Source: Minisyncoccia bacterium (GTDB lineage: Bacteria > Patescibacteriota > Minisyncoccia > Phycocordibacterales > UBA918). From it: a stretch of DNA of 64,000 nt. The translations under genes were made by a program, and so were the position numbers. The notes below the pieces were generated by a model, which was given only the letters and a program-made list of their open reading frames with translations, searched no databases and was not told the DNA's origin. Below, in pieces: positions 7,227-58,758 of this stretch. The stretch spans positions 69,702 through 133,701 of the forward strand of contig JBKJIT010000004.1 of NCBI GenBank assembly GCA_046598345.1, read 5' to 3'. How positions within the stretch are numbered: the first letter of the stretch is position 1; every line of letters starts with the position of its first letter.

Positions 7227-7247
7227 GTTTCCTCCTTTTGAGGTTGG

Positions 7248-28602: not shown

Positions 28603-28857
28603 ATGCGTGTTTCACTCTTCATCCTTTTTATAGTCTCTATCTTCTTCTTTCCGCTGTCACTTACGCTTATTTTTGGATTTATCTATGCGTGCCTGTATGC
28701 TGGATATGAGCTCGTTGTGATTGGGGCCTTTGTCGATGCAACGTTTGGTCAGAGCGGAGGAACAAACATACCCCTCTACACACTTTCATTGACCGGAGTG
28801 ACGCTCGCGGCACTCGTAATTGTGCCGTATCTCAATATTCGATTTCGTAACCCATGA
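28603..28857 (+). CDS. mreD: MreD-like small membrane protein
   Basis: 84 aa, two or three TM helices, positioned between mreC and PBP2. Confidence 0.4.
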   Translation: MRVSLFILFIVSIFFFPLSLTLIFGFIYACLYAGYELVVIGAFVDATFGQSGGTNIPLYTLSLTGVTLAALVIVPYLNIRFRNP

Positions 28858-30542
28858 GATTTTTTAAGAAAAAAAGGAAGGCCGAAATTTCATTCGATGA
28901 GATTCTTCTCGATTCATCAAATTTACCCTCGTTTAATGTAAGTCGCATGGAGGGTCGTATCGAACTGCCACTTGCGGAAAAGAACATTGCAATTGTGGGT
29001 GTCCTTTTTGGTATTATTGCCCTCGTATTTTTTTCACAGACATATAAGTTGCAGATCATAGAAGGAGCGACCCTCACGGAAAAGAGCAATGCAAATATGC
29101 TTGCGGAGAGTCTGATTGTCGCCCCACGTGGCACTGTGTATGACCGGATGGGTGAACTTGTGGCATGGAATGAAATTGATCAAACAGGGCAGTATGATTT
29201 CCCGGTTCGTGCATATACCGACCGGCGCGGATTCGGCCAACTTATTGGGTATGTGAGCTATCCGCAGAAGGATTCTTCTGGGTTCTATTTCAGAAATGAA
29301 TACATTGGCCGAAATGGGGTTGAGGAAACGTATAACGATATCCTGGCTGGAATAAATGGTGAACGAAATGTGGAAATGAATGCGCTTGGCGAAGTTATTT
29401 CTGAAAATAAAGTACATAGTGAAATACCTGGAAAAGAAATTACGTTATCAATCGACGCAGCACTTAGTGAAGTGATGTATGACCTCATAGCAACAACGAC
29501 AGAGACAAATGGGTTCCGGTCGGGTGCTGGAGCGATTATGAACGTGCATACGGGAGAAATTATCGCGCTTTCCAGTTTCCCATCCTACGATCCTGAAGTC
29601 CTTGCAGACGGTGATGAAGTGGCGCTCATTAATTCGTACAATGCCGATTCACGGTTTCCGTTTTTAAATAAAGTTGTGGGGGGCGCATATGTTCCGGGCT
29701 CTATTGTTAAGCCTTTTATGGCGTACGGAGCGCTTAAAGAGAACATCATTGATCCTATGAAGATCATTGTGAGTAATGGTGCGCTCGTGCTGCCGAATAA
29801 GTATGATCCAGAAAAACCCACGGTCTTTAAGGACTGGCGAGTGCAAGGCCCCATGACAATGCGGGACGCAATAGCGTATTCCTCGAATGTGTATTTCTAC
29901 ACGATTGGAGGCGGGTTTGAAGGGCAGGAGGGGCTCGGAATCACACGCATATATAAGTACATGAAACTCTTCGGTCTCGGAGAAAAAACAGGCATCGCGC
30001 TTTCAGGTGAACAAAAAGGAACGGTTCCAAATCCTGAGTGGAAAGAAAAGATATTTCATGATGATTGGCGACTCGGGGACACGTACCACACCTCAATCGG
30101 GCAGTATGGTTTCCAGACTACGCCCCTTCAAATGCTTCGCGCATACGCGGCGATCGCCAATGAAGGTACGCTCGTCACGCCACACGTTGTTAAAGGTGAG
30201 CAGGGTGCAGAGAAAGACATTGCACTTGATCTAGGTGATCTTAAAGTGGTTACCGACGGCATGCGACAAACTGTAATTCAAAATGGGGGTACTGCTCGTT
30301 CACTTGAACGAAAGGATCTTGCGATTGCTGCTAAATCAGGGACTGCTGAGCTTGGAAATGATAACGCGCAGGTAAACTCTTGGATTGCTGGGTATTTCCC
30401 GTATGAGAAACCTGAATATGCCTTTGTTCTTTTCATGGAAAATGGCCCAAGGTCAAATATGGTTGGTGCAGGGTCGGTGATGGGAAAGGTTTTTGATTGG
30501 ATGGCTACAAACCGCCCCGAATATTTTGAACAAAGCCTGTAA
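28854..30542 (+). CDS. mrdA: Penicillin-binding protein 2 (elongasome transpeptidase)
   Basis: SxxK 'SIVKPF', SxN 'SSN', KTG 'KSGTA'; follows mreBCD. Confidence 0.8.
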   Translation: MRFFKKKRKAEISFDEILLDSSNLPSFNVSRMEGRIELPLAEKNIAIVGVLFGIIALVFFSQTYKLQIIEGATLTEKSNANMLAESLIVAPRGTVYDRMGELVAWNEIDQTGQYDFPVRAYTDRRGFGQLIGYVSYPQKDSSGFYFRNEYIGRNGVEETYNDILAGINGERNVEMNALGEVISENKVHSEIPGKEITLSIDAALSEVMYDLIATTTETNGFRSGAGAIMNVHTGEIIALSSFPSYDPEVLADGDEVALINSYNADSRFPFLNKVVGGAYVPGSIVKPFMAYGALKENIIDPMKIIVSNGALVLPNKYDPEKPTVFKDWRVQGPMTMRDAIAYSSNVYFYTIGGGFEGQEGLGITRIYKYMKLFGLGEKTGIALSGEQKGTVPNPEWKEKIFHDDWRLGDTYHTSIGQYGFQTTPLQMLRAYAAIANEGTLVTPHVVKGEQGAEKDIALDLGDLKVVTDGMRQTVIQNGGTARSLERKDLAIAAKSGTAELGNDNAQVNSWIAGYFPYEKPEYAFVLFMENGPRSNMVGAGSVMGKVFDWMATNRPEYFEQSL

Positions 30543-35574: not shown

Positions 35575-37284
35575 ATGAGAGGAAGCGCCGTACAGAGGAT
35601 TCGAATAATCACGGGAGTGGTTATTTTTTGTATGCTCATCCTTATTGGGCGTCTCTACCATGTACAGGTTGCCAATGGGGACAGGTACAGGGAAGAGGCA
35701 GAAAGTCAGTATGTGCACACTGTGCGTGAGCTATTTAAACGCGGAAGTATCTTTTTTGAAACGAAAGACGGCGAGAAGGTCTCAGCTGCAACAGTGCAAT
35801 CTGGTTTTGTACTTGCGATTGACCCAACTCGCATAGAAGATGCCGAGGCGACGTATACGGCATTGAATGCCCTTATTCAACTTGATCATGATGAGTTCGT
35901 CTCAAGGGCGAGTCGAGAGGACAGGACCTATCAAGAAATAAAGCGGCAAGTGAGTAATGAGATTGCAGAAGCAATTAAGAAGCTTGAACTTACAGGTGTG
36001 TCACTCTATCGCGATGATTGGCGGTATTACCCTGGCGCCTCGCTTGCTGCACGCACCGTAGGGTTTGTAGGGTACCAAGGGGACTCGCTTGTTGGTAAGT
36101 ATGGTCTTGAGCGCTATTACGAAGATGTCCTCAAACGAGATAGCGAACGACTCTTTGTAAATTTCTTTGCAGAAATTTTTAGTAATTTTAGCAGTATGGT
36201 TTTTGACGCGGGAGAAGCGACACAGGGAGATATTGTTACTACGATTGAGCCGACGGTTGCGCGAATACTTGATAAGACACTTGAGGAAGTGAATGCGAAA
36301 TACGAGAGTGCGCTTACTGGTGGAATTATCATTAATCCTCAAAATGGGGAAGTGTATGCGCTTTCTGTTGCACCCGCATTTAATCTAAATGATCGTTCAT
36401 CCGTAGATATTCAGACCTTCAATAATCCACTTGTTGAAAATGTGTATGAACTTGGATCTATTATTAAAGCGCTAACCATGGCTGCGGGGATTGATGCCGG
36501 TGCTGTAATGCCATACTCGACCTACTACGATCCTGGATTTATCGAGCTTGATGGGCGCACCATAAATAACTTTGACAAGCGCGGCCGAGGCACGGTCGAC
36601 ATGCAAACAGTGCTCAATCAATCCCTCAACACTGGCGTTGCATATGTGGTAGCTAAGATGGGAAAAGATCGATTTCGAGAATACTTTACGAAACTGAAGC
36701 TGGGTACTGAAACAGGGATTGATCTTCCGAGTGAAGCACACGGTCTTGTTAAAAACTTACAGAGCCCGCGTGACGTTGAGTACGCAACGGCTTCTTTCGG
36801 TCAGGGAATTTCTTTGACTCCCATTGCTGCGACCCGGGCACTCTCAACGCTCGCTAATGGGGGGACACTCATCACCCCCCACATTGCCAAGCGGATTGAG
36901 TATGAGAACGGAAACGATCATGAAGTTGGTTTTCCACCCGGGGAACGTGTATTTAGTGAGAAAACGAGTGAGGAAATCACGAGTATGCTTGTCAATGTCG
37001 TCGACAAGGCTCTAAAAGGGGGGACTGTCGCCATGGAACACTACTCAATCGCTGCCAAAACGGGTACCGCCCAGATTTCAAATGAAGGAGGGAGGGGGTA
37101 TTCAGAGGATAAATTCCTACACTCATTTTTTGGCTATTTTCCCGCCTATGATCCGCAATTCCTCATTTTCCTGTATACTGTGGAGCCGAAGGGGGTCAAT
37201 TTCGCATCAGAAACCCTCACGGATCCCTTCATCGACTTGGCTCACTTTTTGATCAATTACTACAATATTCCGCCTGACAGATAA
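35575..37284 (+). CDS. ftsI: Peptidoglycan D,D-transpeptidase FtsI (PBP3)
   Basis: SxxK 'SIIK', SxN 'SLN', KTG 'KTGTA'; dcw-cluster position. Confidence 0.8.
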   Translation: MRGSAVQRIRIITGVVIFCMLILIGRLYHVQVANGDRYREEAESQYVHTVRELFKRGSIFFETKDGEKVSAATVQSGFVLAIDPTRIEDAEATYTALNALIQLDHDEFVSRASREDRTYQEIKRQVSNEIAEAIKKLELTGVSLYRDDWRYYPGASLAARTVGFVGYQGDSLVGKYGLERYYEDVLKRDSERLFVNFFAEIFSNFSSMVFDAGEATQGDIVTTIEPTVARILDKTLEEVNAKYESALTGGIIINPQNGEVYALSVAPAFNLNDRSSVDIQTFNNPLVENVYELGSIIKALTMAAGIDAGAVMPYSTYYDPGFIELDGRTINNFDKRGRGTVDMQTVLNQSLNTGVAYVVAKMGKDRFREYFTKLKLGTETGIDLPSEAHGLVKNLQSPRDVEYATASFGQGISLTPIAATRALSTLANGGTLITPHIAKRIEYENGNDHEVGFPPGERVFSEKTSEEITSMLVNVVDKALKGGTVAMEHYSIAAKTGTAQISNEGGRGYSEDKFLHSFFGYFPAYDPQFLIFLYTVEPKGVNFASETLTDPFIDLAHFLINYYNIPPDR

Positions 37285-42296: not shown

Positions 42297-42950
42297 TTAC
42301 AGAGCTACCTCACTCATTGCATCAACACGCTCCGTAAATACAACTGTGCGCTTACTGTACACCTGCTCATTTGTAAGAAACTCCCCACCACAGGTAATCA
42401 AATTGAGCCGTGCAACACTCAAATCTCCTACAAACACCTCTCGTGGATCTGCGGTGTAATCATACGTGCGAACCTTTACTACACGAAAGACAATCGCCTC
42501 ACCATTTTCATCTGTCACTTCAACAAGGTCGCCAATATTCAGTTCATCTAGTCTATAAAATACTGCGCGCGGGACGCCTTTCCAGTTGAGATGCCCGTCT
42601 ATGACCGCGTTCCCAAGTGCACCGGGGACAGGCCCGTGCTTGTACCATGCAACATCTATTAAGTTGGTTGGTACACCCATCTCACCCGGTGTCGTTGTTG
42701 AAAGTCCTACATGCTGAATATGCGCGTCTACTTCAATCGCAGGGATAACGAGACGCATGGGAAGCGCAGGAAGGACTTCCGATAACGTTGCTTCCTCGGT
42801 ATTAAAGATAAGTATGCGAGATTCGCTTGCATGCCAAGCGTCTAGATAGAAGTATGCGAGATATGTAGAAAATATAATTGTGAGCGTTACAAAGCACGAA
42901 AGGAGGACCTGTCGCAGGATTGAAATTCGTCTAAATATGTAGGCCATCAC
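42297..42950 (-). CDS. Sortase-family transpeptidase
   Basis: N-terminal TM; catalytic His 'NAVIDGH', 'NLITCGG' (TLxTC Cys), Arg in 'SKRTVVF'. Confidence 0.7.
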   Translation of the reverse strand: MMAYIFRRISILRQVLLSCFVTLTIIFSTYLAYFYLDAWHASESRILIFNTEEATLSEVLPALPMRLVIPAIEVDAHIQHVGLSTTTPGEMGVPTNLIDVAWYKHGPVPGALGNAVIDGHLNWKGVPRAVFYRLDELNIGDLVEVTDENGEAIVFRVVKVRTYDYTADPREVFVGDLSVARLNLITCGGEFLTNEQVYSKRTVVFTERVDAMSEVAL

Positions 42951-43527: not shown

Positions 43528-44478
43528 TTAGTACCCGTCGTATCCGCTTGGTACATCAATCTCCACACCATCAGCATTTCGAAGACGGTAGCTACCATCT
43601 GGGTTCGTTTCCACACTCCGTCCATCCGCAGCATTAATGCTCGCATCGCTTCCATTAATATTAGCTGAGCCGTTATCTCCGCTTGAGTTCACGTTACCCA
43701 TAATGTCGACGCTTGCGTTGAACTCACTCCGATCAATACTGTTTCCTCCAATTTCCATAAATGCATTTTGGATCTCAGTATTGCTGTCGGTGTCGTAATA
43801 TTTCCCGCATCCATTTTCTGCGATGTCACTGAGCTGAGCCTCCACCATGCCTCCTACACCAAGTCCAATAACCTGCGTTTTAATACCCATTTCACAGAGC
43901 ATTTTAGCCACCTGGATTGGATTTCCTCCACAGGTTTCTTCACCGTCGCTGAGGAGTACTACCGTATTGTCATCACCTCCTGCGCGTTTCAGAATATCGT
44001 GCGCCTTTGTAAGCGAATCAGCAATTGGTGTCCATCCTGTAGGCATAAGATTGTTGATGTACCCTTGTGCTACAGAAACATTCACTGGACCCAATGGAAA
44101 TACTTCCTCAATTCCTGCACATGAAATATTCTTCTTAGCCTGTGAATTATCTCCCTTGTGGCCGTACACCACGACACTGAGTCGGACATTTTCTGTGAGA
44201 CCTGCAATAAATTTTGAAGCAGCAGTCTTAGCTACGTTAATCCGACTTTCTCCGGATGGAACCTTTTCTGCCATACTTCCTGAGTCATCAAATACAAGTA
44301 CCATGTGTTTTACTGGATCGTTCGCATCGTCCTTCATGGCCAAATCTCCTTCGCCCGTCTTGGTATTCGTAGTAACCCCTGTATCTAAGCTGACGTTCGG
44401 GAAAAACATTTTGAGTGCAATCGCGCCAAGCAAAATGACAACAATGACTCCTATTCCTATAACTACCTTCGAATTCAT
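43528..44478 (-). CDS. von Willebrand factor type A (VWA) domain protein, membrane-anchored
   Basis: N-terminal TM; MIDAS 'LVFDDSGSM', '...LLSDGEETCGG'. Confidence 0.75.
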   Translation of the reverse strand: MNSKVVIGIGVIVVILLGAIALKMFFPNVSLDTGVTTNTKTGEGDLAMKDDANDPVKHMVLVFDDSGSMAEKVPSGESRINVAKTAASKFIAGLTENVRLSVVVYGHKGDNSQAKKNISCAGIEEVFPLGPVNVSVAQGYINNLMPTGWTPIADSLTKAHDILKRAGGDDNTVVLLSDGEETCGGNPIQVAKMLCEMGIKTQVIGLGVGGMVEAQLSDIAENGCGKYYDTDSNTEIQNAFMEIGGNSIDRSEFNASVDIMGNVNSSGDNGSANINGSDASINAADGRSVETNPDGSYRLRNADGVEIDVPSGYDGY

Positions 44479-47508: not shown

Positions 47509-47952
47509 CTACCGGATTCTGCTTTTGAATTGAGGATCGTTTCGCAAATCTGAAGATACTAAGGTGATTAAAATTGGAGCGCGCGTTACTACCACAGAAG
47601 CTATTTCTCTATCACCTCGAAGCTCTGTAGATGCCCAATTAAAGGCGTAGGGCGCCTGTTTTACCGCTTCAAGCACAACCTCACGATCGTTTTGAAGATT
47701 TTCAGAGGCATACTGAAGTAAAGCGCCGTCTATTTTTACTCTTTCTAATACAAATTTTTTATCATCAGCATACTTTTCCCAGTCCCGAGCTTCATTTTCT
47801 GAAAGTGCTTCGGTCTGAGCATCTGCATATTTTTCTGCATTTTCAAATGCCTCTTTAGCAGCATCAAATTCATCACTTGTAACTTGGCGAATCTGTTCAG
47901 GTTTTTCTGGTGTCATATATTCTATTGAATCATACAACTTCAAAATGTACAC
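47509..47952 (-). CDS. DUF4116-repeat protein
   Basis: 'LQNDREVVLEAVKQAPYAFNWASTELRGDREIASVVV...LRNDPQF' repeats. Confidence 0.45.
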   Translation of the reverse strand: MYILKLYDSIEYMTPEKPEQIRQVTSDEFDAAKEAFENAEKYADAQTEALSENEARDWEKYADDKKFVLERVKIDGALLQYASENLQNDREVVLEAVKQAPYAFNWASTELRGDREIASVVVTRAPILITLVSSDLRNDPQFKSRIR

Positions 47953-48062
47953 CTCAGTGAGTGGAGTAGAATCGAAGCTTACAGCTTCAGTACCCGTTAC
48001 GGCTACTTTTCTTCACTGCGCTCTAAAAGATAGCTTGCAACGGCTTCGATTCCCTGGACTAT

Positions 48063-48089
48063 GCTCCATTGGTCAGCCCTATGACAACA
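48063..48089 (+). repeat. 27-bp motif GCTCCATTGGTCAGCCCTATGACAACA (copy 1), left boundary of the KaiC cassette
   Basis: 26/27 identical to copies at 55979, 56034 and 56531; contains the stop codon of the GAF kinase. Confidence 0.6.
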
Positions 48090-49323
48090 TCTCAACCCTC
48101 GCAGCCTCTCTATGGTCATTCTTTTGAAGTGGAAGTGAAAATGAAAATATCGAACCTACCCCTAGCTCACTCTGGACATCCAGTGTTCCATTATGAGCCT
48201 TAATGATATCGCTACAAATATAAAGGCCGAGACCTAGGCCAATCGTTTTCGTGTCAGTTCGTACTCGGTAGAATCGATCAAATATTTTAGTACAATCTGC
48301 TTTAGCGATACCGTGACCAAAATCCTTTACACTTACTATAGCTTCAGAACTTGTCTGATTAACAGTAATTTCGATTCTTTCTGATTGTGGAGCATATTTA
48401 ATTGCATTGCCTAGCAAGTTAGTTAACACTTGGGTTATTTTATCTTTGTCTGCGTGAACAATAAGGTTTGTATGCGAATACATGAGTACAAATTTTTGCG
48501 ATGAGTGATTTTGAAAATAGTTAACTGCATCGTTAACAAGCTGATTTAGATCGAAGTTTTCTTTTTGCAGATGTACTTCTCCATTTTTGAGGGCACGTAT
48601 ATCAAAAAGACGAGTCACAAGCGAGTCGAGATGATCTATTTGGGTATCAATGTTCCCAACATCCATATCTAAATCCTCGGAATTGTTTGTGGAAAGTTTG
48701 TGTTGCAACAATTGTGTATATGCTTTCAAACTTGTAAGAGGTGTTCTAATTTCATGAGCAGCTATTAAGACAAACTCGTCCAATGCGGATGCTGCTTGAC
48801 GTAATTCAATTTCAGTCAGCACGGATTTCGACAGTTCGACTAAGATTTCTAATTCATCTTCAGTCCAGATTCTTTTCTTATAATCAACTACACAGCACGT
48901 ACCAAGAATAAGCCCTTGTTTTGTGATAAGCGGAATGCCTGCGTACGCAACTACACCTAGGTAATGCACCGAGGGGAAGTGACGAAAAATTTCTGATTCG
49001 CGTGCGTCCTCCAAGACAAGTGGTTCACCACTGTCGACAATATGCTGGCAAAATGATGGGTGGGCAGTAATTTCTCTACTTTCCGCAAGTGGAGCAGGGA
49101 GCCCGAAATGACTCTTTAAAAAATCACGATCCTTTTCAAGTATTGTCACAAACGAAATGGGGGTTTTAAGGAGTTTCGATGCTAATCGTGTAAGCCGGTC
49201 AAACGCCTCTTCTTCGCCAGTATCAATTAAATTTATTTTCTTTACAGCATTTAATCGACGCGCATTATTGACCGTATCACGAATTTTTTTGATGTGACCA
49301 TCTATGGGAGAATCATTCGACAT
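48079..49323 (-). CDS. GAF-domain sensor histidine kinase
   Basis: GAF region; HisKA 'IAAHEIRTPLTSLKAYTQLL'; HATPase_c 'LLGNAIKYAP...VKDFGHGI...GLGLGLYICSDIIKAHNG'. Confidence 0.8.
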   Translation of the reverse strand: MSNDSPIDGHIKKIRDTVNNARRLNAVKKINLIDTGEEEAFDRLTRLASKLLKTPISFVTILEKDRDFLKSHFGLPAPLAESREITAHPSFCQHIVDSGEPLVLEDARESEIFRHFPSVHYLGVVAYAGIPLITKQGLILGTCCVVDYKKRIWTEDELEILVELSKSVLTEIELRQAASALDEFVLIAAHEIRTPLTSLKAYTQLLQHKLSTNNSEDLDMDVGNIDTQIDHLDSLVTRLFDIRALKNGEVHLQKENFDLNQLVNDAVNYFQNHSSQKFVLMYSHTNLIVHADKDKITQVLTNLLGNAIKYAPQSERIEITVNQTSSEAIVSVKDFGHGIAKADCTKIFDRFYRVRTDTKTIGLGLGLYICSDIIKAHNGTLDVQSELGVGSIFSFSLPLQKNDHREAARVEMLS

Positions 49324-49398
49324 AAAGCAATTATATATTAAAACGAGTATTTGAGGTAAAAATGAAAATTTTCATCTCGTATTCATTTTTCCCTATAG

Positions 49399-49426
49399 GT
49401 GACCCACATTAGTGCGAATTGGAACC
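49399..49426 (-). promoter_or_regulatory. Conserved 28-nt upstream motif (copy 2) GTGACCCACATTAGTGCGAATTGGAACC
   Basis: See copy 1; 76 nt upstream of the GAF-kinase start, in the divergent region shared with kaiC. Confidence 0.35.
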
Positions 49427-49614
49427 AACTATTCAAAAACATGTTGATATTTGATTAATCGAGAACAGACGATTCATGATTATTTCATCGGAGTCGAGTA
49501 AACTACTTTAGTGTGATCGCACTGTCGAAAGAAGAATGGCGTACCTTCTCGTGAAACAAGCATTAATCGGAACATTATCAGAGCACAACGATTCCCTAAG
49601 ATTATGATTATTGT

Positions 49615-51123
49615 ATGCCTAAAACTCCTAAGAAAAAACTTGCCTCTAACCAGAAGCACTTAGACAAATGCCCCACTGGCATCAAAGGCTTAGACGAGGT
49701 TACCGAAGGCGGGTTTCCGAAAAATAGAACCACATTAATTTCCGGAGGTGCCGGCTCTGGAAAAACCCTTTTGGGGATTGATTTTCTTATCAAAGGTGCA
49801 AGCGATTTTAACGAGCCAGGCGTCTTCATGTCCTTTGAGGAGACACAAGATGACCTGTATAAAGATGTGGCTTCTCTAAGCCTTGATTTACCAGGACTTG
49901 TTTCACGAAAAAAGATTCTGATTGAGCATGTGATTCTCGATCGCAAAGATATTCGAGAGGGCGACTTCAATCTTGAGGGGATACTCGTTCGTCTGGAACA
50001 TGCCATTGATTCGATTGGAGCAAAACGCATTGTTTTAGATTCTATCGAATCTCCCTTTGCAAGCATCGCCGATGCCGGCATTCTTCGAATAGAGATCAAA
50101 AGACTTTTTAAGTGGCTTAAAGACAAACACGTTACAGCAATCGTTACTGGCGAGCCAGGACGAGGTGCGTATACTCGTCATGGCCTCGAGGAGTTCGTCT
50201 CCGACTGCATTATTCTGCTCGATAATAGAGTTAAAGAACAAATTGCTATCCGTAGACTTCGTATCGTCAAATATCGGGGTTCAAACCATGGAACAAACGA
50301 ATATCCATTCGTCATTGATCAATCGGGGCTTTCTGTAATTCCGATCACCTCAGCAGGACTTAATCAGCCGGGCATTGCCAAAAAAGTCTCAACAGGAATT
50401 CCATCGTTGGACAAAATGTTTAAGGGAAAACCCGGATATACCAAAGGCAGCACGATACTGGTTTCGGGCACTGCAGGCACAGGCAAAACAAGCCTGGCTG
50501 CTGCATTCGCACTAGCGAGCTGTAAACGGGGAGAGCGGTGTCTATTCTTGTCGTATGAAGAATCTTCCGGGCAACTCATACAAAACATGAGTTCTATAGG
50601 TATTCATTTTGAGCCCTGGGTAAAAAAAGGACTCTTAAAGATTGTCTCGGTGAGGCCTTCTTTTTTTGGCCTAGAGATGCACTTGCTTGATTTATACAAG
50701 CTTGTTGACAGTTTTAAACCAAAATCTGTCGTCATAGATCCTCTGACGAGTCTCATTGGAGAGGGGGACGAGCGTGAAATCAGATCTATGATCACTCGCA
50801 TGATTGACCTCTTAAAGTCGAAAGCCATCACTACGTTTTTCACATCTCTTGTTTCTGCATCACAGTATAATGACACGAGCGGTGAGATCGGCGTTTCTTC
50901 CCTAATAGACACGTGGATCGTAGTGAGAGAATTAGAAGAAGAAGTAGGAAAAAAACGTATTCGTGGAATCTTCATTGTGAAGTCTCGTGGCACTGGGCAT
51001 GAGAGTGACGTCCATAAGTTGATTTTGAGTGATGATGGAATTAGCATAATACCCATGGATCTTGCGAGCGCCAATGCGAAAAACAAGAATGACAAGAAGT
51101 TTACCCCTACCCCCCCCTCATGA
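49615..51123 (+). CDS. kaiC: KaiC-like double-RecA-domain ATPase
   Basis: Two Walker A motifs (ISGGAGSGKTLLG; VSGTAGTGKTSLA); catalytic-Glu-like 'SFEETQDD' and 'SYEESSGQ'; C-terminal 'GVSSLIDTWIVVRELEE' aligns with the KaiC phosphosite loop. Confidence 0.8.
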   Translation: MPKTPKKKLASNQKHLDKCPTGIKGLDEVTEGGFPKNRTTLISGGAGSGKTLLGIDFLIKGASDFNEPGVFMSFEETQDDLYKDVASLSLDLPGLVSRKKILIEHVILDRKDIREGDFNLEGILVRLEHAIDSIGAKRIVLDSIESPFASIADAGILRIEIKRLFKWLKDKHVTAIVTGEPGRGAYTRHGLEEFVSDCIILLDNRVKEQIAIRRLRIVKYRGSNHGTNEYPFVIDQSGLSVIPITSAGLNQPGIAKKVSTGIPSLDKMFKGKPGYTKGSTILVSGTAGTGKTSLAAAFALASCKRGERCLFLSYEESSGQLIQNMSSIGIHFEPWVKKGLLKIVSVRPSFFGLEMHLLDLYKLVDSFKPKSVVIDPLTSLIGEGDEREIRSMITRMIDLLKSKAITTFFTSLVSASQYNDTSGEIGVSSLIDTWIVVRELEEEVGKKRIRGIFIVKSRGTGHESDVHKLILSDDGISIIPMDLASANAKNKNDKKFTPTPPS

Positions 51124-51145
51124 GCAAGGAGTAATGTCGTAACAC

Positions 51146-51733
51146 ATGAAAACACTACGACCCAACTTCATTGTCGGTATTGGGGGCTCGGCCGGAGCTC
51201 TTAACGCATATAAGGCGCTCTTGGATGCCACGCCGCCCAAAACAGGGATGGCCTTAGTCATTATTTCTCATATGAATCCCGCCGCCAGCAGTGAGTTAGC
51301 GCACATTCTGTCGCGTCACACGAAAATGCCGGTCATGGTTGCTACCCAAGCGATGCCAGTCCGAAAGAATCACATCTACGTTATCGCCCCGAACTCGGAT
51401 ATTTACATTGAAAAATATACTTTCAAAGTCGTCTCCCCGCGCACAGAGAGGAATAAGCAAATAGATCTGTTTTTGACTTCGTTAGCAGAGGCTATGGGGG
51501 CACATGCTATCGGCGTTATCCTTTCGGGATTTGGTGGTGACGGTACGGAAGGATGCAAAAACATCAAAGCAAACAGGGGAACAACCTTTGCTCAGGACAA
51601 CTCGGCCGAAGTAGACGACATGCCGCTCAGTGCCCAGGCTTCAGGCTGTATTGATTTCGTTCTGCCACCTGACAAAATTTCAGTTGAACTACAAAAAATA
51701 GTAGGGACACACCTACGCGCCAACCGGGTTTAG
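51146..51733 (+). CDS. Stand-alone CheB-type protein-glutamate methylesterase (catalytic domain only)
   Basis: 'IVGIGGSAGA' Ser, 'ISHMNP' His, 'GFGGDGTEG' Asp; no receiver domain. Confidence 0.7.
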   Translation: MKTLRPNFIVGIGGSAGALNAYKALLDATPPKTGMALVIISHMNPAASSELAHILSRHTKMPVMVATQAMPVRKNHIYVIAPNSDIYIEKYTFKVVSPRTERNKQIDLFLTSLAEAMGAHAIGVILSGFGGDGTEGCKNIKANRGTTFAQDNSAEVDDMPLSAQASGCIDFVLPPDKISVELQKIVGTHLRANRV

Positions 51734-52105
51734 CGTGCCCGTACCCAAATGCTTTCCGACTGTAGTTAGCATATCCTGCATGGTATACGGCTTTTCCATA
51801 AAACCGTTTGCACCCGCTTCAAGTGCTGAGGCAGATGCATCAGGGTATGCCGAAATCATGATGATGGGAATATGTTTTGTGACTTGACGTGTTTTCAAAT
51901 GCCTGCAAACGTCAAGTCCGTTTACTCCTGCCATCCAGATGTCGAGGAGAATGAGATCGGGAAACGGGGCGTTTATTTTTTTGACCTCTTCTCCATTCAT
52001 GATCGAAGTTACTTCATACCCGCCATATTGAAGGACCATGGTAAGAGAAGCGACAATACCGTCATTGTCATCTGCCACTAAAACTTTTTTCTTTTGTTTA
52101 GCCAT
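51713..52105 (-). CDS. Single-domain response regulator (CheY-like receiver)
   Basis: 'KKVLVADDN', phospho-acceptor in 'LILLDIWMAG', 'IIMISAY', 'GFMEKPY'; 21-nt convergent overlap with the CheB gene. Confidence 0.85.
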   Translation of the reverse strand: MAKQKKKVLVADDNDGIVASLTMVLQYGGYEVTSIMNGEEVKKINAPFPDLILLDIWMAGVNGLDVCRHLKTRQVTKHIPIIMISAYPDASASALEAGANGFMEKPYTMQDMLTTVGKHLGTGTLNPVGA

Positions 52106-52147
52106 ATTGACCTTTTCATCTATTCAACAGAGGTGTTCATGTAGATG

Positions 52148-55100
52148 TCATGAATTTGCAGTGGCCTTACGTTTTGTTAGCTGTGGGAGGGGAAGTGTAA
52201 AGGTGAATGTAGAACCTTTACCTAAGATACTTTCGACCAGTATCTTGCCCTCGTGTTTCTCGATGATCTGGGCCGCAATAAATAATCCGAGCCCGAATCC
52301 TTCTGCTTTTTCACTCTTTGCAAAGCCGTTCTTTTCTTTTCCTCGGTAAAAGCGCTCAAAGATCGTTTTATGATCTGCCTTTTCAATCCCCAAGCCGAAG
52401 TCCTGAATGCTTACCACTGCATCTCCCGCATGTTCGCCCACGTGTACAATTACTTTTTTTCCGACAGGCGAATATTTGATTGCATTCGTGAGTAAGTTTA
52501 TCACCACCTGCTCAATGCGACTTGCATCAGCTACGACATGTCGTTTTACTCTGCCTTCTAGCGTAATCGTATGGTGCAGCGTGGTTTCCTTGATCGCACT
52601 TACAGTGCGTTCCATGAGTTTGTTGAGATCAAACTCTTCTTTATTAATTAAAAATTTTCCTGCTTGCATTTGGCTGAAACTCAGTAGATCACCGACCAAG
52701 TTCGTAAGCCTATCGCTCTGAGTGATGATGTGCTCAAGAATGACTGCGCTCTCTTTCTTTACGCTGCCTGAGAGCTTTTTTTGCAAAAGCTCGGTAAATG
52801 TCTTGATAGTTGTGACGGGCGTCTTTATTTCATGCGAGGCAATACCGATAAACTCCTCTTTCTGTTGCTCAAGTTCTTTGCGTCCGGTGATGTCGACAAA
52901 ACAATTAATCGCTCCGGTTATTTCTTCTTTTTCATTTTTAATTGGACGAATATTGATGATGACAGTGACCCGCGAACCATCGGGGCGCGCAATCTGAACT
53001 TCCAGATCACGTGCCTCGGGAATCTTGCCAGATAACACCTCGGCCATCGGAGTTACCTCGTGGGGCATGAACGTGCCGTCGGAGCGGTACAATTTGAACG
53101 AACCCCAGAAGCGCTCGTCGGTATCGCCACGCTGCGGGCTGCGGCCCCACAATTCCGTAGCATTGTGGTTGAAATCCCGAATCACGCCGTTTGCATCGCA
53201 GGAATAGAGCGCGATGGGGCCTAAGTCGAATAAAATGCGGTAGCGCTCTTCATTCTCTATAATTTTTTGATGAGCGAGAGCTTGTTCGGTTATATCCTCA
53301 ATGGCAAGTAGAATAAGCCCCGTTTTCCCTGCATCTTGAATCAGTTTGCGAGCATTCAAAAGGAGTACCTTGTGACCAATTGAGGGAAAGGTGTGCTCAA
53401 TCTCAAAGTTTTCCAATTTCGTATTTTTGGGTAGGATCTCCGTCAAAAGTGTGCGTAATTTTGGAATGTCCCACTGCCCATTGCCCAATTCGTAGAGGAA
53501 ATTTCCTTCCGTTTGCTCCTTTGATACCTGGAATGTCCGAAAAAAAGATTCATTCGCGCTTCTCACTCGCAAGTCGCTGTTGATGACGATTAACGACCCT
53601 CGCACCGTTTCAATAATCGCCTCAGTATATGCGCGGGACTCGTTCAGTTGCTCATTGCGTGTTTGCAGCTCTTGATTAATCGTGTTGAGCTCTTCGTTGG
53701 TTGACTCAAGTTCTTCACCGGACGTTTCCAATTCCTCATTGATACTCTGCAGCTCTTCGTTGCTTGAAAGGATTTCCTCGTTTGCAGATTGCAGCTCCTC
53801 AACTGCAGCTTCCTGTTCTTCCGCGAGGGATCGCTCGTTGTCACGTACCTGAGCAAGTTCTTTCTCGAGCACAGCGCTCCTACGGCTCTCCGTCTTCGAC
53901 CTACGAACGTTAGAGGCAGTCTGGCGGAGTGGAGAGTCCGCGGTATCGACTCTCTCTGGAGCCGTATGAAATATAACTAGGAAATGACGCTCTGCAGAAG
54001 TTTTATTTAAAGGAATCACTTCAATCGAGATGGCGTGTGCATGTGTTTCTGTCAGCAGCGTAACTTCTCTTTTAATAGAAAGACTGGTCCTTTTTGCTTT
54101 TAGAATTGCGCCGCGAAGCTCGGATATCAACCCTGCTCGCGCTACTTTTAAAAGATTGAATGTCGCTTTTCCCGTTGGAAATTGGAGATATTCCCCCGTG
54201 TCGCCTCGGAACTGCAGGATCTCATACTCGGCGTTAACCAGAACGCTCGCCGGCGCAAAGCGCCCGACCAGAATGGCATCAGCCTCATCTTGAATTCCAA
54301 TCGTCCGTGCAAGGGGAGTAGTCTCTCGGCTTGAGGGAGTGCGCTGTCGGCCCATCGCGCGCTCCTCGCGCGGAATAACGTCGGGTAATACTTTTCTCGT
54401 CCCAGTTTTTTTTGTGAAGACTTTACTTTTTTTCACAACCGGAATGAAGAGCTTTGGCGTCACCCCCACTGATTCTGATTTTCCTAGGATCAATACTCCC
54501 TCGCTCACAAGTGCATAATGAAGAGCCGACAAAATCCTATACTGCAAGCTCGTGTCCATATAGATAAGAACATTGCAGCAACTAACGATATCAATCCGCG
54601 AAAACGGCGGATCTTTCAGCAGATTGTGCAATGAAAAAACGCACATATCCCGTACATCCCTTCGTATTTGATATGCGCCATTTGTTTCGACGAAGTACCG
54701 CTCGAGACGTTGCGGTGACACGCCAATCACATCGCTTTTCGTGTATGTTCCGTGACGAGCCTTCGCAATTGCGACTTGGGCCAAATCAGTGCCAAATATT
54801 TGTAGAGGGATAGAGAGCGATTTGCTACTCATGAAGTCCAAAACAGTGATAGCAAGTGAATAGACCTCTTCTCCAGTTGCGCATCCCGCCACCCAGATGC
54901 GCAGAGGTTCTTTAGCGGTCTTGGCTTTAATCAGCTTCGGGAGAAGCTTTTGAGTTAAGGTGTTCAATGCAACTGGGTCTCGGAAGAAATCAGTAACATG
55001 TATGAGAATATCATTAAAGAGCGCGTCAGCTTCGGTGCCATTTCCCCGCAGAAAATTGAGGTAGTCTGCTGCAGTTTCCATCTTATTGATGATCATCCTG

Positions 55101-55900
55101 CGAGTGATACGTCGCGTCAGAGTTGTCTCTTTATAGTGGCTGAAGTCCACGCCGGTAGCCCGCAGAAGCTCCGCGATAATCCGCCGGTAATCGTCGAGTT
55201 TATGCAACTCTGTTTTAGAAAGTTCCGAATCACCCATCGTTACAAGCGGATGCTCGCTGAGGAGAGCGAGCTCTTCCGCTATTCTTTGCGGGGACAGCAC
55301 ATAATCAACGACGCTCGCTGAAATGGCAGATTGCGGCATGCTCTGATATTTTGCCGTAGTATCTTGCGCGAACGTGAGTCCGCCAGCCTCTTTTATCGCT
55401 CGCAGTCCTACCGTGCCATCGCTCGCAGTCCCCGAGAGCACAACTCCGATAGCTTTCTCCTGCCTTTCACTGACGAGCGAGATAAAAAAGTCATCGATGG
55501 GCATATTGAGCAATCCTTTTTCTTTCGGACGTGACAAGAGCATAAGCCTTTCTCCCTTGAGGGTCATGCACTTACCCGGCGGAATAACATAAATATGATC
55601 CGATGTAACGAGCGTTCCATTTTTCACTTCTGTGACAGGAATCTGAGTAAATCGTGCGAGTAACTCCACAAGCATACTTTTGTGGAGTGGGTCCAAATGT
55701 TGTATGAGGACATACGCCATGCCGGTTTTGAGCGGCAGAGATTCAATAAGGTTGCCAAATGCCTCGAGCCCACCCGCCGAAGCTCCTATACCAACAATGG
55801 GAACCGGTTGTAGGGTTTGTGTTTTCCTGCTACGCCGTACAAGAGCAGGTCTTTTTTTGCTTTTCTTGTCTAGCATACTCCTCGGTTTCATACCACCCAT
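52148..55900 (-). CDS. Multidomain CheB methylesterase / CheR methyltransferase / PAS / coiled-coil / histidine kinase fusion
   Basis: CheB 'IVGIGASAGGLEAF...IQHLDP...SGTASDGTVG'; CheR 'LRIWVAGCATGEEVYSLAI'; 'EELQSANEEILSSNEELQSINEELETSGEELESTNEEL' heptad repeat; HisKA 'IASHEIKTPVTTI'; HATPase_c 'LLTNAIKYSP...IQDFGLGI...GFGLGLFIAAQ'. Confidence 0.8.
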   Translation of the reverse strand: MGGMKPRSMLDKKSKKRPALVRRSRKTQTLQPVPIVGIGASAGGLEAFGNLIESLPLKTGMAYVLIQHLDPLHKSMLVELLARFTQIPVTEVKNGTLVTSDHIYVIPPGKCMTLKGERLMLLSRPKEKGLLNMPIDDFFISLVSERQEKAIGVVLSGTASDGTVGLRAIKEAGGLTFAQDTTAKYQSMPQSAISASVVDYVLSPQRIAEELALLSEHPLVTMGDSELSKTELHKLDDYRRIIAELLRATGVDFSHYKETTLTRRITRRMIINKMETAADYLNFLRGNGTEADALFNDILIHVTDFFRDPVALNTLTQKLLPKLIKAKTAKEPLRIWVAGCATGEEVYSLAITVLDFMSSKSLSIPLQIFGTDLAQVAIAKARHGTYTKSDVIGVSPQRLERYFVETNGAYQIRRDVRDMCVFSLHNLLKDPPFSRIDIVSCCNVLIYMDTSLQYRILSALHYALVSEGVLILGKSESVGVTPKLFIPVVKKSKVFTKKTGTRKVLPDVIPREERAMGRQRTPSSRETTPLARTIGIQDEADAILVGRFAPASVLVNAEYEILQFRGDTGEYLQFPTGKATFNLLKVARAGLISELRGAILKAKRTSLSIKREVTLLTETHAHAISIEVIPLNKTSAERHFLVIFHTAPERVDTADSPLRQTASNVRRSKTESRRSAVLEKELAQVRDNERSLAEEQEAAVEELQSANEEILSSNEELQSINEELETSGEELESTNEELNTINQELQTRNEQLNESRAYTEAIIETVRGSLIVINSDLRVRSANESFFRTFQVSKEQTEGNFLYELGNGQWDIPKLRTLLTEILPKNTKLENFEIEHTFPSIGHKVLLLNARKLIQDAGKTGLILLAIEDITEQALAHQKIIENEERYRILFDLGPIALYSCDANGVIRDFNHNATELWGRSPQRGDTDERFWGSFKLYRSDGTFMPHEVTPMAEVLSGKIPEARDLEVQIARPDGSRVTVIINIRPIKNEKEEITGAINCFVDITGRKELEQQKEEFIGIASHEIKTPVTTIKTFTELLQKKLSGSVKKESAVILEHIITQSDRLTNLVGDLLSFSQMQAGKFLINKEEFDLNKLMERTVSAIKETTLHHTITLEGRVKRHVVADASRIEQVVINLLTNAIKYSPVGKKVIVHVGEHAGDAVVSIQDFGLGIEKADHKTIFERFYRGKEKNGFAKSEKAEGFGLGLFIAAQIIEKHEGKILVESILGKGSTFTFTLPLPQLTKRKATANS

Positions 55901-55976
55901 TGTACGCGCGCCCGTGGAAATAGATAGGGTTTATTTTAAGCTAATTCGAGCCGTACACGGGCATGCTTGGAGAACC

Positions 55977-56090
55977 TAGCTCCATAGGTCAGCCCTATGA
56001 CAACAGAAAAAATTAATACGTCAAGATTTGTTAGCTCCATAGGTCAGCCCTATGACAACAGAAAAAATTAATACGTCAAGATTTGTGACC
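55977..56090 (+). repeat. Two tandem 57-bp units, each beginning with the 27-bp GCTCCATAGGTCAGCCCTATGACAACA motif
   Basis: 55977-56033 and 56034-56090 near-identical; third copy at 56530-56586. Confidence 0.7.
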
Positions 56091-56246
56091 TCCCGGAAAA
56101 TCGGGGTCAAGTTCCTAAGCTCGTTGCGACTCGCTAAGAACTTTCTCCCCGGTCTCCCTCGAGTAGGCTCTCAGTCCGACTTTCGATTCTCCTGGACTAA
56201 AATAGTAAAACCCCGCACAAGGCGAGGCTTTACTATTTCAGTGACC
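56085..56246 (+). repeat. Distal copy of ~160-bp unit: degenerate tRNA-Glu 3'-end copy (gtgacctcccggaaaatcg) + terminator-containing segment
   Basis: Near-identical to 56582-56737; ends with a partial 'gtgacc'. Confidence 0.6.
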
Positions 56247-56339
56247 CAATAGCGTGGCTTTCAGAACTTTATAAGGACCAACAATATATCAAATCGAGTA
56301 TTCAGTTATTAAGCGATTTTGTATCTTAATGATGTGTGA

Positions 56340-56537
56340 CTATAGAGAGTTATATGCCTCAACTTGATTATCATATTCAAACTTCACCATCTGAAAGTTC
56401 ATACCCCACTTATTTTTTGCTTTTACCATAATGTTTGGGTGCGCTGTTTGAGCCATTACCCAATCATATGCCTCAACTTGATTATCATATTCAAACTTCA
56501 CCATCTGGTAGTTGTCACCCCATTTTTGTAGCTCCAT
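56340..56537 (-). CDS. doubtful small ORF with internal repeat (YQMVKFEYDNQVEAY x2)
   Basis: 41-bp DNA direct repeat at 56353 and 56468; start codon lies inside the 27-bp motif; may be non-coding. Confidence 0.15.
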   Translation of the reverse strand: MELQKWGDNYQMVKFEYDNQVEAYDWVMAQTAHPNIMVKAKNKWGMNFQMVKFEYDNQVEAYNSL

Positions 56538-56581
56538 AGGTCAGCCCTATGACAACAGATAAATTTAATACGTCAAGTTTT

Positions 56582-56737
56582 GTGACCTCACGGAGAATCG
56601 GGGTCAAGTTCCTAAGCTCGTTGCGACTAGCTAAGAACTTTCTCCCCGGTCTCCCTCGAGAAGGCTCTCAGTCCGACTTTCGATTCTCCTAGACTAAAAT
56701 AGTAAAACCCCGCACAAGGCGAGGCTTTACTATTTCA
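56582..56737 (+). repeat. Proximal copy of ~160-bp unit beginning with an exact 19-nt copy of the tRNA-Glu 3' end
   Basis: gtgacctcacggagaatcg at 56582-56600 equals 56738-56756; remainder equals 56104-56246. Confidence 0.6.
56703..56724 (-). terminator. Rho-independent terminator just 3' of tRNA-Glu
   Basis: On - strand: CCTCGC-CTTGT-GCGGGG + TTTT; duplicated at 56204-56225. Confidence 0.55.
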
Positions 56738-56738
56738 G

Positions 56739-56810
56739 TGACCTCACGGAGAATCGAACTCCGATTTGCTGGATGAGAACCAGCTGTCCTAACCGTTAGA
56801 CGATGAGGCC
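56739..56810 (-). tRNA. tRNA-Glu (anticodon CUC)
   Basis: Manual fold: acceptor GGCCTCA/TGAGGTC, D-arm TCGTCTAACGGTTAGGACA, anticodon stem-loop GCTGG-TTCTCAT-CCAGC, T-arm CGGAG-TTCGATT-CTCCG, discriminator A; no encoded CCA. Confidence 0.8.
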
Positions 56811-57045
56811 GTATATTTGATTTTCACTAAACCGCAAGTTTATAAGAATGAGTGAGAAGTGATTTTATATCACTTCGCAAGACTTTGACAGATATTTTGT
56901 TAAAAATATCTGTCAAAGTGGACAGTCGCTGTAAGCGATCGTAAAAGAGTATCCCACACTCTTTTACTCCCATCCGTTGACGATCATGCCGACTTGATTT
57001 GAACGGCATAGTTATACCAGATTTACTCTCTTTATTAAAGAGAGG

Positions 57046-58758
57046 ATGGACTCCTGTATACTAGAGGACATGACACAGAAACAGGCGCTTGAGATACTTA
57101 AAACGGGAGCAAATGTGTTCCTAACCGGAGAACCCGGAGCAGGAAAGACGTATGTTCTGAACGAGTACATCGAGTGGCTCATGGACCACGACATCAGTGT
57201 GGCCATTACCGCATCGACCGGAATCGCAGCGACGCATATTGGCGGTATGACTATCCACTCGTGGAGTGGTATTGGCGCGAGAGACACCTTGAATCAGTAC
57301 GACTTAGACGCAATCATCAGCAAAGAAAAAACCATGAAGCGTCTTCAGAAGGCGAAGGTCTTGGTGATTGATGAAATCTCCATGCTCGATGGGAGGGTGC
57401 TCGATATGGTCGAAACAGTGTGCCGGGTTGGCCGGGGAAATGGAGATTCGTTTGGTGGACTCCAAATCATTCTCGTTGGGGATTTTTTTCAGCTGCCACC
57501 AATCGCAGGGAGGGGAGAGATGTCTCGTTTTGCGTTTGAGTCACGCTCGTGGGAAAGTGCAAAATTCCTCACGAGTTATCTCACAGAGCAGCATCGCCAA
57601 GAAGACGATCTCCTCCTTGGGCTTCTGTCGTCCATCCGCAAAAATGACGTTGAGGAATCTCACTACACACTCCTTTCTGAGCAAACAGAAATTGGGTTTC
57701 CTGATATCGAACCTACGAAGCTCTACACGCACAACAGCGATGTCGATGCGGTCAATTTAGAAAAACTGCGAGGGCTCACCACTTCTGGTGCAACATTCAA
57801 AATGGCTGCACGAGGGAATAAGCAGCTCCTCGTTGGACTCGTAAAGAATTGCCTCTCACCCGAAGTACTCGAACTCAGAAAGGATGCGATGGTGATGTGT
57901 ACGAAGAATAATTTTGAGGTTGGGTATGTAAACGGAACACTCGGTCGTGTCACCGCTTTTGACAAGGAAGACGGGTACCCAATTATCGAGACGAGTGACG
58001 GACGTTCGCTTAAGATTTTACCGACTACGTGGACTATCGGAGAAGATGGAAAGCTTCTCGCTGAGATTTCTCAGGTACCACTTCGTCTTGCGTGGGCTAT
58101 CACGATACATAAGAGTCAGGGAATGTCGCTCGACGCTGCTGAAATTGATCTTCGGAATGCGTTCACGTACGGGCAAGGCTACGTTGCGTTATCACGTGTA
58201 CGCACACTTACGGGGATGAAAGTGCTCGGTCTTAACTCCCAAGCGCTTCTTGTGGATCCTCGGGTCGTGCATCGTGACGCGCGCTTCCGCGAGGAGTCAG
58301 AAGATGGTGAGTCTGCGTTCAATGAAATGGAAGAAGGCGAGATCGAGGGTATGCAAAAGAGCTTTGTACTTGCAACTGGTGGCACATGGGAAGTTGAAGA
58401 GAGAAAGGAGCGTGGGAATCGTGCTGTTTCCTCTCGCCTTGAAAAAGAAAACACCTTTCTTACCACTAAAGCCCTCATTGAAAAGAGACTTACTCCTGAG
58501 GCTATTGCACGCGAGCGAAAAATGGCACTTTCCACTATTTGGTCACACATCGAAAAGCTTTCCGACGAAGGGGCAATTTCAAAAGACGACCTTCAGGGTC
58601 TCATTCCATCAAACATTTCGTGGCCCGCGATTTACCCAGACATCGCCTCCGCATTTCTGAAACACGGCACAGAAAAACTTAAGCCAGTCTATGAAGAGCT
58701 CAAGGAGGCGTATGATTATGATTTAATTCGCCTTGGACGTATTCTCTACAAGAAATAA
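57046..58758 (+). CDS. Pif1/RecD-family ATP-dependent DNA helicase with C-terminal HTH-like domain
   Basis: Walker A 'LTGEPGAGKTY', Walker B 'VLVIDEISM', 'ILVGDFFQLPP', 'ITIHKSQGMS'. Confidence 0.7.
   Translation: MDSCILEDMTQKQALEILKTGANVFLTGEPGAGKTYVLNEYIEWLMDHDISVAITASTGIAATHIGGMTIHSWSGIGARDTLNQYDLDAIISKEKTMKRLQKAKVLVIDEISMLDGRVLDMVETVCRVGRGNGDSFGGLQIILVGDFFQLPPIAGRGEMSRFAFESRSWESAKFLTSYLTEQHRQEDDLLLGLLSSIRKNDVEESHYTLLSEQTEIGFPDIEPTKLYTHNSDVDAVNLEKLRGLTTSGATFKMAARGNKQLLVGLVKNCLSPEVLELRKDAMVMCTKNNFEVGYVNGTLGRVTAFDKEDGYPIIETSDGRSLKILPTTWTIGEDGKLLAEISQVPLRLAWAITIHKSQGMSLDAAEIDLRNAFTYGQGYVALSRVRTLTGMKVLGLNSQALLVDPRVVHRDARFREESEDGESAFNEMEEGEIEGMQKSFVLATGGTWEVEERKERGNRAVSSRLEKENTFLTTKALIEKRLTPEAIARERKMALSTIWSHIEKLSDEGAISKDDLQGLIPSNISWPAIYPDIASAFLKHGTEKLKPVYEELKEAYDYDLIRLGRILYKK

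Follow-up and report, generated by a model that had tools for sequence, protein, structure and literature searches.

The closest described counterpart of the protein considered here is KaiC of Rhodobacter sphaeroides, a member of the KaiC2 subgroup that works in a KaiBC hourglass and for which several structures have been solved (8DBA, 8DB3, 8FWI and 8FWJ). A pair of serine phospho-sites is the hallmark of the KaiC2 subgroup (PMC5520375; PMC10076222), whose members also carry a C-terminal extension of about 50 amino acids that, in R. sphaeroides, forms a coiled coil joining two hexamers (PMC10076222). The R. sphaeroides protein needs no KaiA for autophosphorylation; this still holds after deletion of the coiled coil, and the coil-deleted form carries out nucleotide exchange and autophosphorylation at near wild-type rates (PMC10076222). 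KaiC2-type proteins usually co-occur with KaiB2 (PMC5520375), and in KaiBC systems kaiB is as a rule clustered with kaiC (PMC10076222). Two further points of comparison are the KaiABC oscillator of Synechococcus elongatus and the stand-alone KaiC-like proteins (groups I-III) that Terrettaz et al. describe from Pseudomonas in a preprint (bioRxiv 10.1101/2022.01.26.477890). The subject of this analysis is a kaiC homologue (49615-51123, + strand) in a 64,000-nucleotide stretch of the genome of a Minisyncoccia bacterium (contig JBKJIT010000004.1, positions 69,702 to 133,701; "the window" is this whole stretch), together with the gene that directly follows it, which encodes a solo, receiver-less CheB-type protein-glutamate methylesterase/deamidase. 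The two genes are co-operonic and are inherited together across more than ten phyla. It is proposed, tentatively, that in this widespread and conserved KaiC clade a receiver-less CheB may have taken the partner role of KaiB, so that the timer would be wired to protein-glutamate methylation, an adaptation memory, in place of KaiB fold-switching, possibly controlling CheB/CheR-fused kinases.

The pairing was followed in 80 genomic loci that encode close relatives of the window KaiC (68-87% identity). A homologue of the solo CheB comes next after kaiC, on the same strand, in every one of the 76 loci with room downstream; it is 58-77% identical in 75 of them, the remaining locus holding a partial, divergent copy. 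Unsupervised clustering of every open reading frame (ORF) in the loci returned the solo CheB as the sole conserved neighbour, the next-largest clusters being those of a kinase (21 loci) and a regulator (12 loci). The idea that a kinase or regulator belongs to a larger conserved operon was rejected, as the clustering gave no third conserved gene. The association also holds in the reverse direction, with KaiC directly upstream in four of four relatives chosen by CheB similarity alone; in one of the four, kaiC is split into two ORFs. The genes are separated by 22 nucleotides in the window and by a median of 11 nucleotides among the loci, where many pairs overlap by 1-8 nucleotides, and the overlapping stop and start codons fit co-translation of kaiC and cheB. 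Pairwise identities of the KaiC proteins correlate with those of their CheB partners (r = 0.56, Mantel p = 0.001).

Phyla were taken from the record titles, and for the metagenome-assembled genomes (MAGs) among them taxonomy depends on the quality of binning. The loci are assigned to Bdellovibrionota, Bacteroidota, Acidobacteriota, Verrucomicrobiota, Planctomycetota, Nitrospirota, Gemmatimonadota, Myxococcota, Elusimicrobiota, Fibrobacterota, and Alpha-, Beta- and Gammaproteobacteria. The nearest relatives of the window KaiC are encoded in Bdellovibrionia MAGs; cultured carriers of the clade include Mucilaginibacter (for example M. aurantiaciroseus RB4R14, locus L045) and Flavobacterium, and the habitats are soil and freshwater. 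Three MAGs contain two cassettes, in which each KaiC is paired with a CheB of its own (L019/L020 in Terriglobales, L015/L023 in Acidobacteriota and L043/L055 in Nitrospiraceae), an arrangement that suggests specific pairing of the paralogues.

Some individual loci are of interest in their own right. In L085 (4499-6020), kaiC is split into ORFs of 198 and 179 amino acids upstream of a solo cheB that is 76-78% identical; the cause is either decay of this copy or a frameshift in the assembly. Two records, titled as a Halobacteriales archaeon (L054) and as a member of the Parcubacteria group (L048), contain the cassette at 73-76% identity, and mis-binning is the likelier explanation for both than true presence. 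In the metagenomic locus L084 a phage-type integrase and a resolvase (2052-3035 and 6827-7384) lie on the flanks of the cassette, and a CheB-CheR-PAS fusion and two PAS kinases adjoin it, which hints at occasional mobility of a signalling island.

That the two genes form a mobile or defence element with no part in signalling could be argued from the integrase and resolvase of that one locus and from the occurrence of the cassette, at 65-87% identity, in genomic surroundings that are unrelated from phylum to phylum. Mobility genes are not, however, a recurrent feature of the neighbourhood, and the window is ordinary chromosome of unremarkable base composition, with genes for MreB, penicillin-binding proteins (PBPs), tRNA synthetases and TruB. 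In a PADLOC scan KaiC had only short, P-loop-level matches and the CheB-like protein had no match, and the defence-system reading was rejected on this negative scan; as a whole, the idea of a cassette unrelated to signalling is hardly credible.

The solo cheB gene (51146-51733, + strand) encodes a protein of 195 amino acids that matches PF01339 over its full length (E = 8.7e-48). It shares the catalytic fold and the Ser-His-Asp triad of the chemotaxis CheB proteins (1A2O, 1CHD, 3SFT and 6YMZ). An AlphaFold model computed from a 27-sequence alignment, with a mean predicted local distance difference test score (pLDDT) of 75, matches the CheB catalytic domains 6YMZ, 3SFT and 1CHD in Foldseek with template-modelling (TM) scores of 0.78-0.82. 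The triad residues are Ser15 (51188-51190), His42 (51269-51271) and Asp132 (51539-51541), all on the + strand; they were placed by alignment with an unverified E. coli CheB sequence, to which the triad motifs align unambiguously. Among the orthologues the serine is present in 71 of 71, the histidine in 67 and the aspartate in 70. Chemotaxis CheB combines a receiver with the methylesterase and is encoded in a che operon, whereas Pfam finds in the 195-residue solo protein the catalytic domain only, without a receiver, and no cheA, cheW or methyl-accepting chemotaxis protein (MCP) genes are among its conserved neighbours in the 80 loci; it does not lie in a che operon. The NCBIfam CheB models are not passed (93-108 bits, against cutoffs of 293-342). 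Its affinities lie instead with the CheB/CheR fusion sensor kinases (KEGG-style name "two-component system CheB/CheR fusion protein"), one of which is encoded nearby at 52148-55900. With the CheB domain of that kinase the solo CheB shares 42% identity, with E. coli CheB 30%, and many members bear the Joint Genome Institute (JGI) name "CheB/CheR fusion protein"; for these reasons it is regarded as a paralogue of the CheB domain with which the fusion kinases begin.

The kaiC gene is the longest ORF at its position, and its product is a regular, double-domain member of the KaiC family; public annotation already names it "circadian clock protein KaiC". The protein has 502 amino acids, with the CI domain at about residues 18-245 and the CII domain at about 255-480. 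PF06745 matches it in two stretches (E = 4.7e-110), and the NCBIfam model NF006799, "circadian clock protein KaiC", is passed with 611.6 bits (cutoff 408); the cyanobacterial equivalog TIGR02655 is not reached (304.3 bits, cutoff 546.25). Identity is 34% to S. elongatus KaiC and 48% to R. sphaeroides KaiC. The closest solved structures are likewise those of R. sphaeroides (8DB3, 8DBA and 8FWI, E about 1e-148 to 1e-147), the cyanobacterial structures being much weaker matches (E about 1e-82 to 1e-87).

A first-pass annotation, made from the sequence alone, had noted that both RecA-like domains keep their Walker A motifs and paired glutamates, and had matched the segment GVSSLIDTWIV to the S431/T432 loop of cyanobacterial KaiC, here with Ser-Ser. 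Alignment of the window protein with S. elongatus KaiC (a query identical to PDB 1U9I), R. sphaeroides KaiC and four relatives bears out both statements, and the positions that follow, all on the + strand, were assigned from it, with the nucleotide coordinates of all motifs checked by translation. In CI, the Walker A motif GGAGSGKT (49744-49767) includes Lys50, the equivalent of S. elongatus K52, and the catalytic glutamates E75-E76 (49837-49842, equivalent to E77-E78) lie within SFEETQDD. In CII, the motif GTAGTGKT (50467-50490) includes Lys291 (S. elongatus K294), and the glutamates E315-E316 (50557-50562, equivalent to E318-E319) lie within SYEESSGQ. The arginine fingers R221 and R458 are conserved as well, so that Walker A lysine, Glu-Glu pair and arginine finger are all kept in both domains. 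The predicted autophosphorylation sites are S428-S429 (50896-50901), within GVSSLIDTW, which correspond exactly to S431-T432 of S. elongatus and to S413-S414 of R. sphaeroides; the latter pair appears as EE in entry 8FWI, a published phosphomimetic (PMC10076222). The loop around the sites, GEIGVSSLIDTW (50881-50916), is essentially invariant in 71 relatives.

The two serines are no peculiarity of this protein; they are the published KaiC2 hallmark (PMC5520375; PMC10076222), and the motif G(V/L)SSL(I/M)D is common to the window and R. sphaeroides proteins. These two KaiCs also agree in their double-domain build, in lacking KaiA, and in having neither the cyanobacterial type of R-linker nor a conserved A-loop. 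From S. elongatus KaiC, with which Walker A motifs, glutamate pairs, arginine fingers and the position of the phospho-pair all align, the window protein differs by Ser-Ser in place of Ser-Thr, by the absence of T426 (Gly423 occupies that position) and of a conserved A-loop, and by having no KaiA, KaiB or SasA nearby. The glycine also distinguishes it from R. sphaeroides KaiC, as does its C-terminus, which has no coiled-coil extension of about 50 amino acids and ends some 20 residues past the last conserved block in a short, Lys-rich and variable tail. It is thus KaiC2-like by its Ser-Ser pair without having the coiled coil of that subgroup, and in the absence of the coiled coil a dodecamer is not expected. 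Most relatives have 500-530 amino acids and are poorly conserved only beyond residue 480 and in the N-terminal 16 residues; members of the clade share a mean pairwise identity of 77%, with 40% of positions at least 98% invariant across phyla. Judged by its 48% identity to R. sphaeroides KaiC, the window protein is most likely a hexameric autokinase and ATPase, and putatively an autophosphatase, that is independent of KaiA and KaiB. Autokinase activity without KaiA may fairly be expected, because the coil-deletion construct of R. sphaeroides KaiC stays active.

Where R. sphaeroides would lead one to look for kaiB beside kaiC, the window has the methylesterase gene. The first-pass annotation had reported neither KaiA nor KaiB nearby, and this agrees with the tblastn searches of the window, in which the best match had E = 0.93 for KaiB (S. 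elongatus query) and E = 3.8 for KaiA (with an unverified query sequence). Across 1.03 Mb comprising the 80 orthologous loci the best KaiB match had E = 3.2, and neither kaiA nor kaiB was detected within 10 kb of kaiC in any of them. The KaiB query was verified against PDB 4KSO and picks up the KaiB2-type proteins of Rhodobacter (3e-23) and Legionella (2e-17), and for that reason it is considered sensitive enough.

These searches bear most directly on the suggestion that the window encodes an ordinary KaiBC hourglass timer whose kaiB lies elsewhere in the genome, with the CheB-like gene as an output or accessory. The habitual company of KaiC2-type proteins with KaiB2 (PMC5520375) speaks for it, as does the segment that aligns with the cyanobacterial KaiB-binding B-loop, which is present in the window KaiC and partly invariant (D..FNLEG); the window search, moreover, took in 64 kb of a 407-kb contig. 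It is quite unlikely nonetheless, in that no KaiB appears in the window or in the roughly 1 Mb around 80 orthologues although kaiB normally clusters with kaiC (PMC10076222), the slot next to kaiC is always filled by the CheB-like gene, and the coiled-coil tail typical of the KaiB-linked KaiC2 clade is missing.

The first-pass annotation had also drawn attention to histidine kinases and methylation enzymes as the neighbours of kaiC, in place of kaiB or sasA, and proposed an ATPase or phospho-timer that feeds a two-component pathway. Both kinds of gene are indeed present in the window, and a timer input of this kind, independent of KaiA and KaiB, remains the most reasonable class of function. 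The kinase link is the part that does not hold beyond the window: of the 80 loci only 13 have a histidine kinase within 3 kb of kaiC, while the solo CheB is found in 76 of 76. With the CheB constant and the kinases not, any model must place the methylesterase, and not a kinase, next to KaiC.

A stand-alone KaiC beside kinases and regulators is already described in Pseudomonas. The Pseudomonas KaiC-like proteins also lack KaiA and KaiB and occur in non-photosynthetic hosts among two-component genes; their constant neighbour is a histidine kinase, which a single-domain regulator may or may not accompany, and the preprint reports no CheB (bioRxiv 10.1101/2022.01.26.477890). The window KaiC clade reverses this pattern, its receiver-less CheB being constant and its kinases optional. 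It could be held, all the same, that the window KaiC is a stand-alone stress-response protein that talks directly to histidine kinases in the Pseudomonas manner and that the CheB-like protein has no specific role. Two kinases and a regulator do surround the window kaiC, and the Pseudomonas genes are nearly always beside kinases, affect stress resistance, and had their products tested against those kinases in a two-hybrid assay (bioRxiv 10.1101/2022.01.26.477890). Such a role is nevertheless unlikely, given the scarcity of kinases near kaiC just described, the fact that the GAF-containing kinase of the window is not beside kaiC in other loci, and the overlapping stop and start codons, which point to co-translation with CheB.

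The fusion kinase of the window (52148-55900, - strand) is a sensor kinase of 1250 amino acids composed of CheB, CheR, a Glu-rich heptad coiled coil, two PAS domains, HisKA and HATPase_c. Of the 80 loci, 12 have a CheR-containing fusion kinase no more than 5 kb from kaiC, as does the window; for the 25 loci whose sequence extends 5 kb or more on each side of kaiC, the count is 5. The link of this kinase family to KaiC is seen in only some 15-20% of loci. Relative to kaiC they may be upstream or downstream, convergent or divergent. All of those near kaiC carry 3-8 consecutive EELxSxN heptads, for example EELQSANEEILSSNEELQSINEELETSGEELESTNEEL, and the repeat was seen in the window and in L002, L016, L038, L041, L042, L045, L052, L054, L058, L061, L065, L066 and L068. 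In the window kinase the heptads occupy residues 701-756 (53633-53800, - strand), with a Glu-Glu pair every seven residues followed by small residues. The heptads resemble the methyl-accepting motif of chemoreceptors, Glu-Glu-x-x-Ala-Ser/Thr, and are a candidate built-in methyl-accepting helix for the CheR and CheB domains of the fusion kinases themselves. No publications on the CheB/CheR fusion kinase family were found in the literature searched.

A mechanism can be proposed from these elements. The KaiC hexamer would autophosphorylate S428 and S429 without KaiA and would hydrolyse ATP, like its R. sphaeroides counterpart. In canonical CheB the receiver domain provides gating in cis. The solo CheB has no gating receiver, so its control most likely comes in trans from the state of KaiC, which might act by binding, sequestering or delivering the methylesterase, in a manner akin to the sequestration of KaiB, SasA and CikA by cyanobacterial KaiC; alternatively, the state of KaiC might be read out through the methylesterase. 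The solo CheB would then set the level of methylation on the Glu-rich heptad helix of CheB/CheR-fused kinases such as that at 52148-55900, which may in turn signal through the single-domain response regulator at 51713-52105. In this way an energy-, time- or temperature-dependent state of KaiC would be coupled to a "memory", in the form of methylation, on a two-component pathway. The partnership itself has good support, the direction of control and the substrate being conjecture. That KaiC and the CheB-like enzyme act as a pair in signalling without KaiB is held with confidence evenly poised between acceptance and doubt; the specific substrate model, in which the solo CheB acts on the heptads of the fusion kinases, is possible but doubtful.

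The substrate might also be KaiC itself, with the CheB-like enzyme deamidating glutamine or demethylating methyl-glutamate residues of KaiC and so giving the timer another covalent mark besides phosphorylation. The strict one-to-one pairing and the co-translation would fit this proposal, as would the several MAGs with two cassettes that each have their own CheB, the many cassettes that have no other obvious substrate gene nearby, and the extreme conservation of KaiC. It is weakened by the lack of a methyltransferase accompanying the cassette, so that no writer of the mark is seen; by inspection of KaiC by eye, without a formal search, in which no MCP-like methylation motif was seen; and by the paralogy of the solo CheB with the fusion-kinase CheB domain, which suggests the fusion kinases as targets. 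Modification of KaiC by its partner is, on balance, very unlikely.

Several observations weigh against the proposal that KaiC governs the solo CheB and, through it, the fusion kinases. Gene content, intact motifs, operon structure, co-inheritance and paralogy are shown by the data, whereas contact between KaiC and CheB, the direction of control and the substrate are inferred. The correlated identities of the two proteins would also follow from simple co-inheritance, and kaiB may be present elsewhere in the genome, the searches having covered the window and the orthologous loci. In 4 of the 71 solo CheB orthologues the histidine of the triad is replaced. About 80% of the cassettes have neither a CheB-CheR kinase nor any other kinase nearby, and the proposed substrate leans on the minority of loci that do and on paralogy. 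The heptads match only the short Glu-Glu-x-x-Ala-Ser/Thr consensus and, as judged by eye, miss the longer, 10-residue one at its first position. The fusion kinases, finally, have a CheB domain of their own, and why they should need a second esterase is unclear.

The remaining features of the window add detail to this setting. Upstream of kaiC and divergent from it lies the gene for a GAF-HisKA-HATPase_c histidine kinase (48079-49323, - strand; domains by Pfam), which is not conserved near kaiC elsewhere. The divergent intergenic region between the two genes (49324-49614) is 291 bp long, and a promoter scan found nothing above chance in it; over 47900-57100, promoter and terminator scanning gave no more sites than in shuffled sequence and is uninformative on transcription units. 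On the other side, the response regulator (51713-52105, - strand; 130 amino acids) lies downstream of the CheB-CheR-PAS kinase, and its 3' end overlaps that of solo cheB convergently by 21 nucleotides (51713-51733). There is no convincing terminator between them, and transcription of both operons may collide. Beyond the GAF kinase are genes, all on the - strand, for a DUF4116 repeat protein (47509-47952), a von Willebrand A-domain protein (43528-44478) and a sortase (42297-42950), with no apparent connection to kaiC. Further away, two full-length MreB paralogues (16472-17551 and 26637-27710, both + strand; E about 1e-131) are encoded about 9 kb apart, and two PBP2-type transpeptidases (28854-30542 and 35575-37284) belong to the same region; this would suit a chromosome like that of Bdellovibrio, as would the nearest KaiC relatives. 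At 14932-16434 (- strand) a protein of 500 amino acids combines an XRE-type HTH_3 domain (residues 9-60) with the EPSP-synthase/MurA fold PF00275 (73-487); a DNA-binding domain on an enolpyruvyl transferase seems an unusual fusion.

Many non-photosynthetic bacteria have KaiC homologues but neither KaiA nor KaiB. No description of a KaiC paired with CheB, a methylesterase or CheR was found in the literature searched, an absence that holds for that literature, and the kaiC-cheB cassette looks like an undescribed variant. The clade offers a concrete handle on what KaiC homologues do in such bacteria, namely a fixed unit of KaiC and a CheB-type enzyme of known chemistry that is present in many phyla. 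Should the pairing be incidental, the locus would be one more stand-alone KaiC. If KaiC does gate the methylesterase, a phosphorylation- and ATPase-based timer would be linked to methylation-based adaptation, two processes that have hitherto been studied separately, and the poorly understood CheB/CheR-fused sensor kinases would gain their first functional lead.

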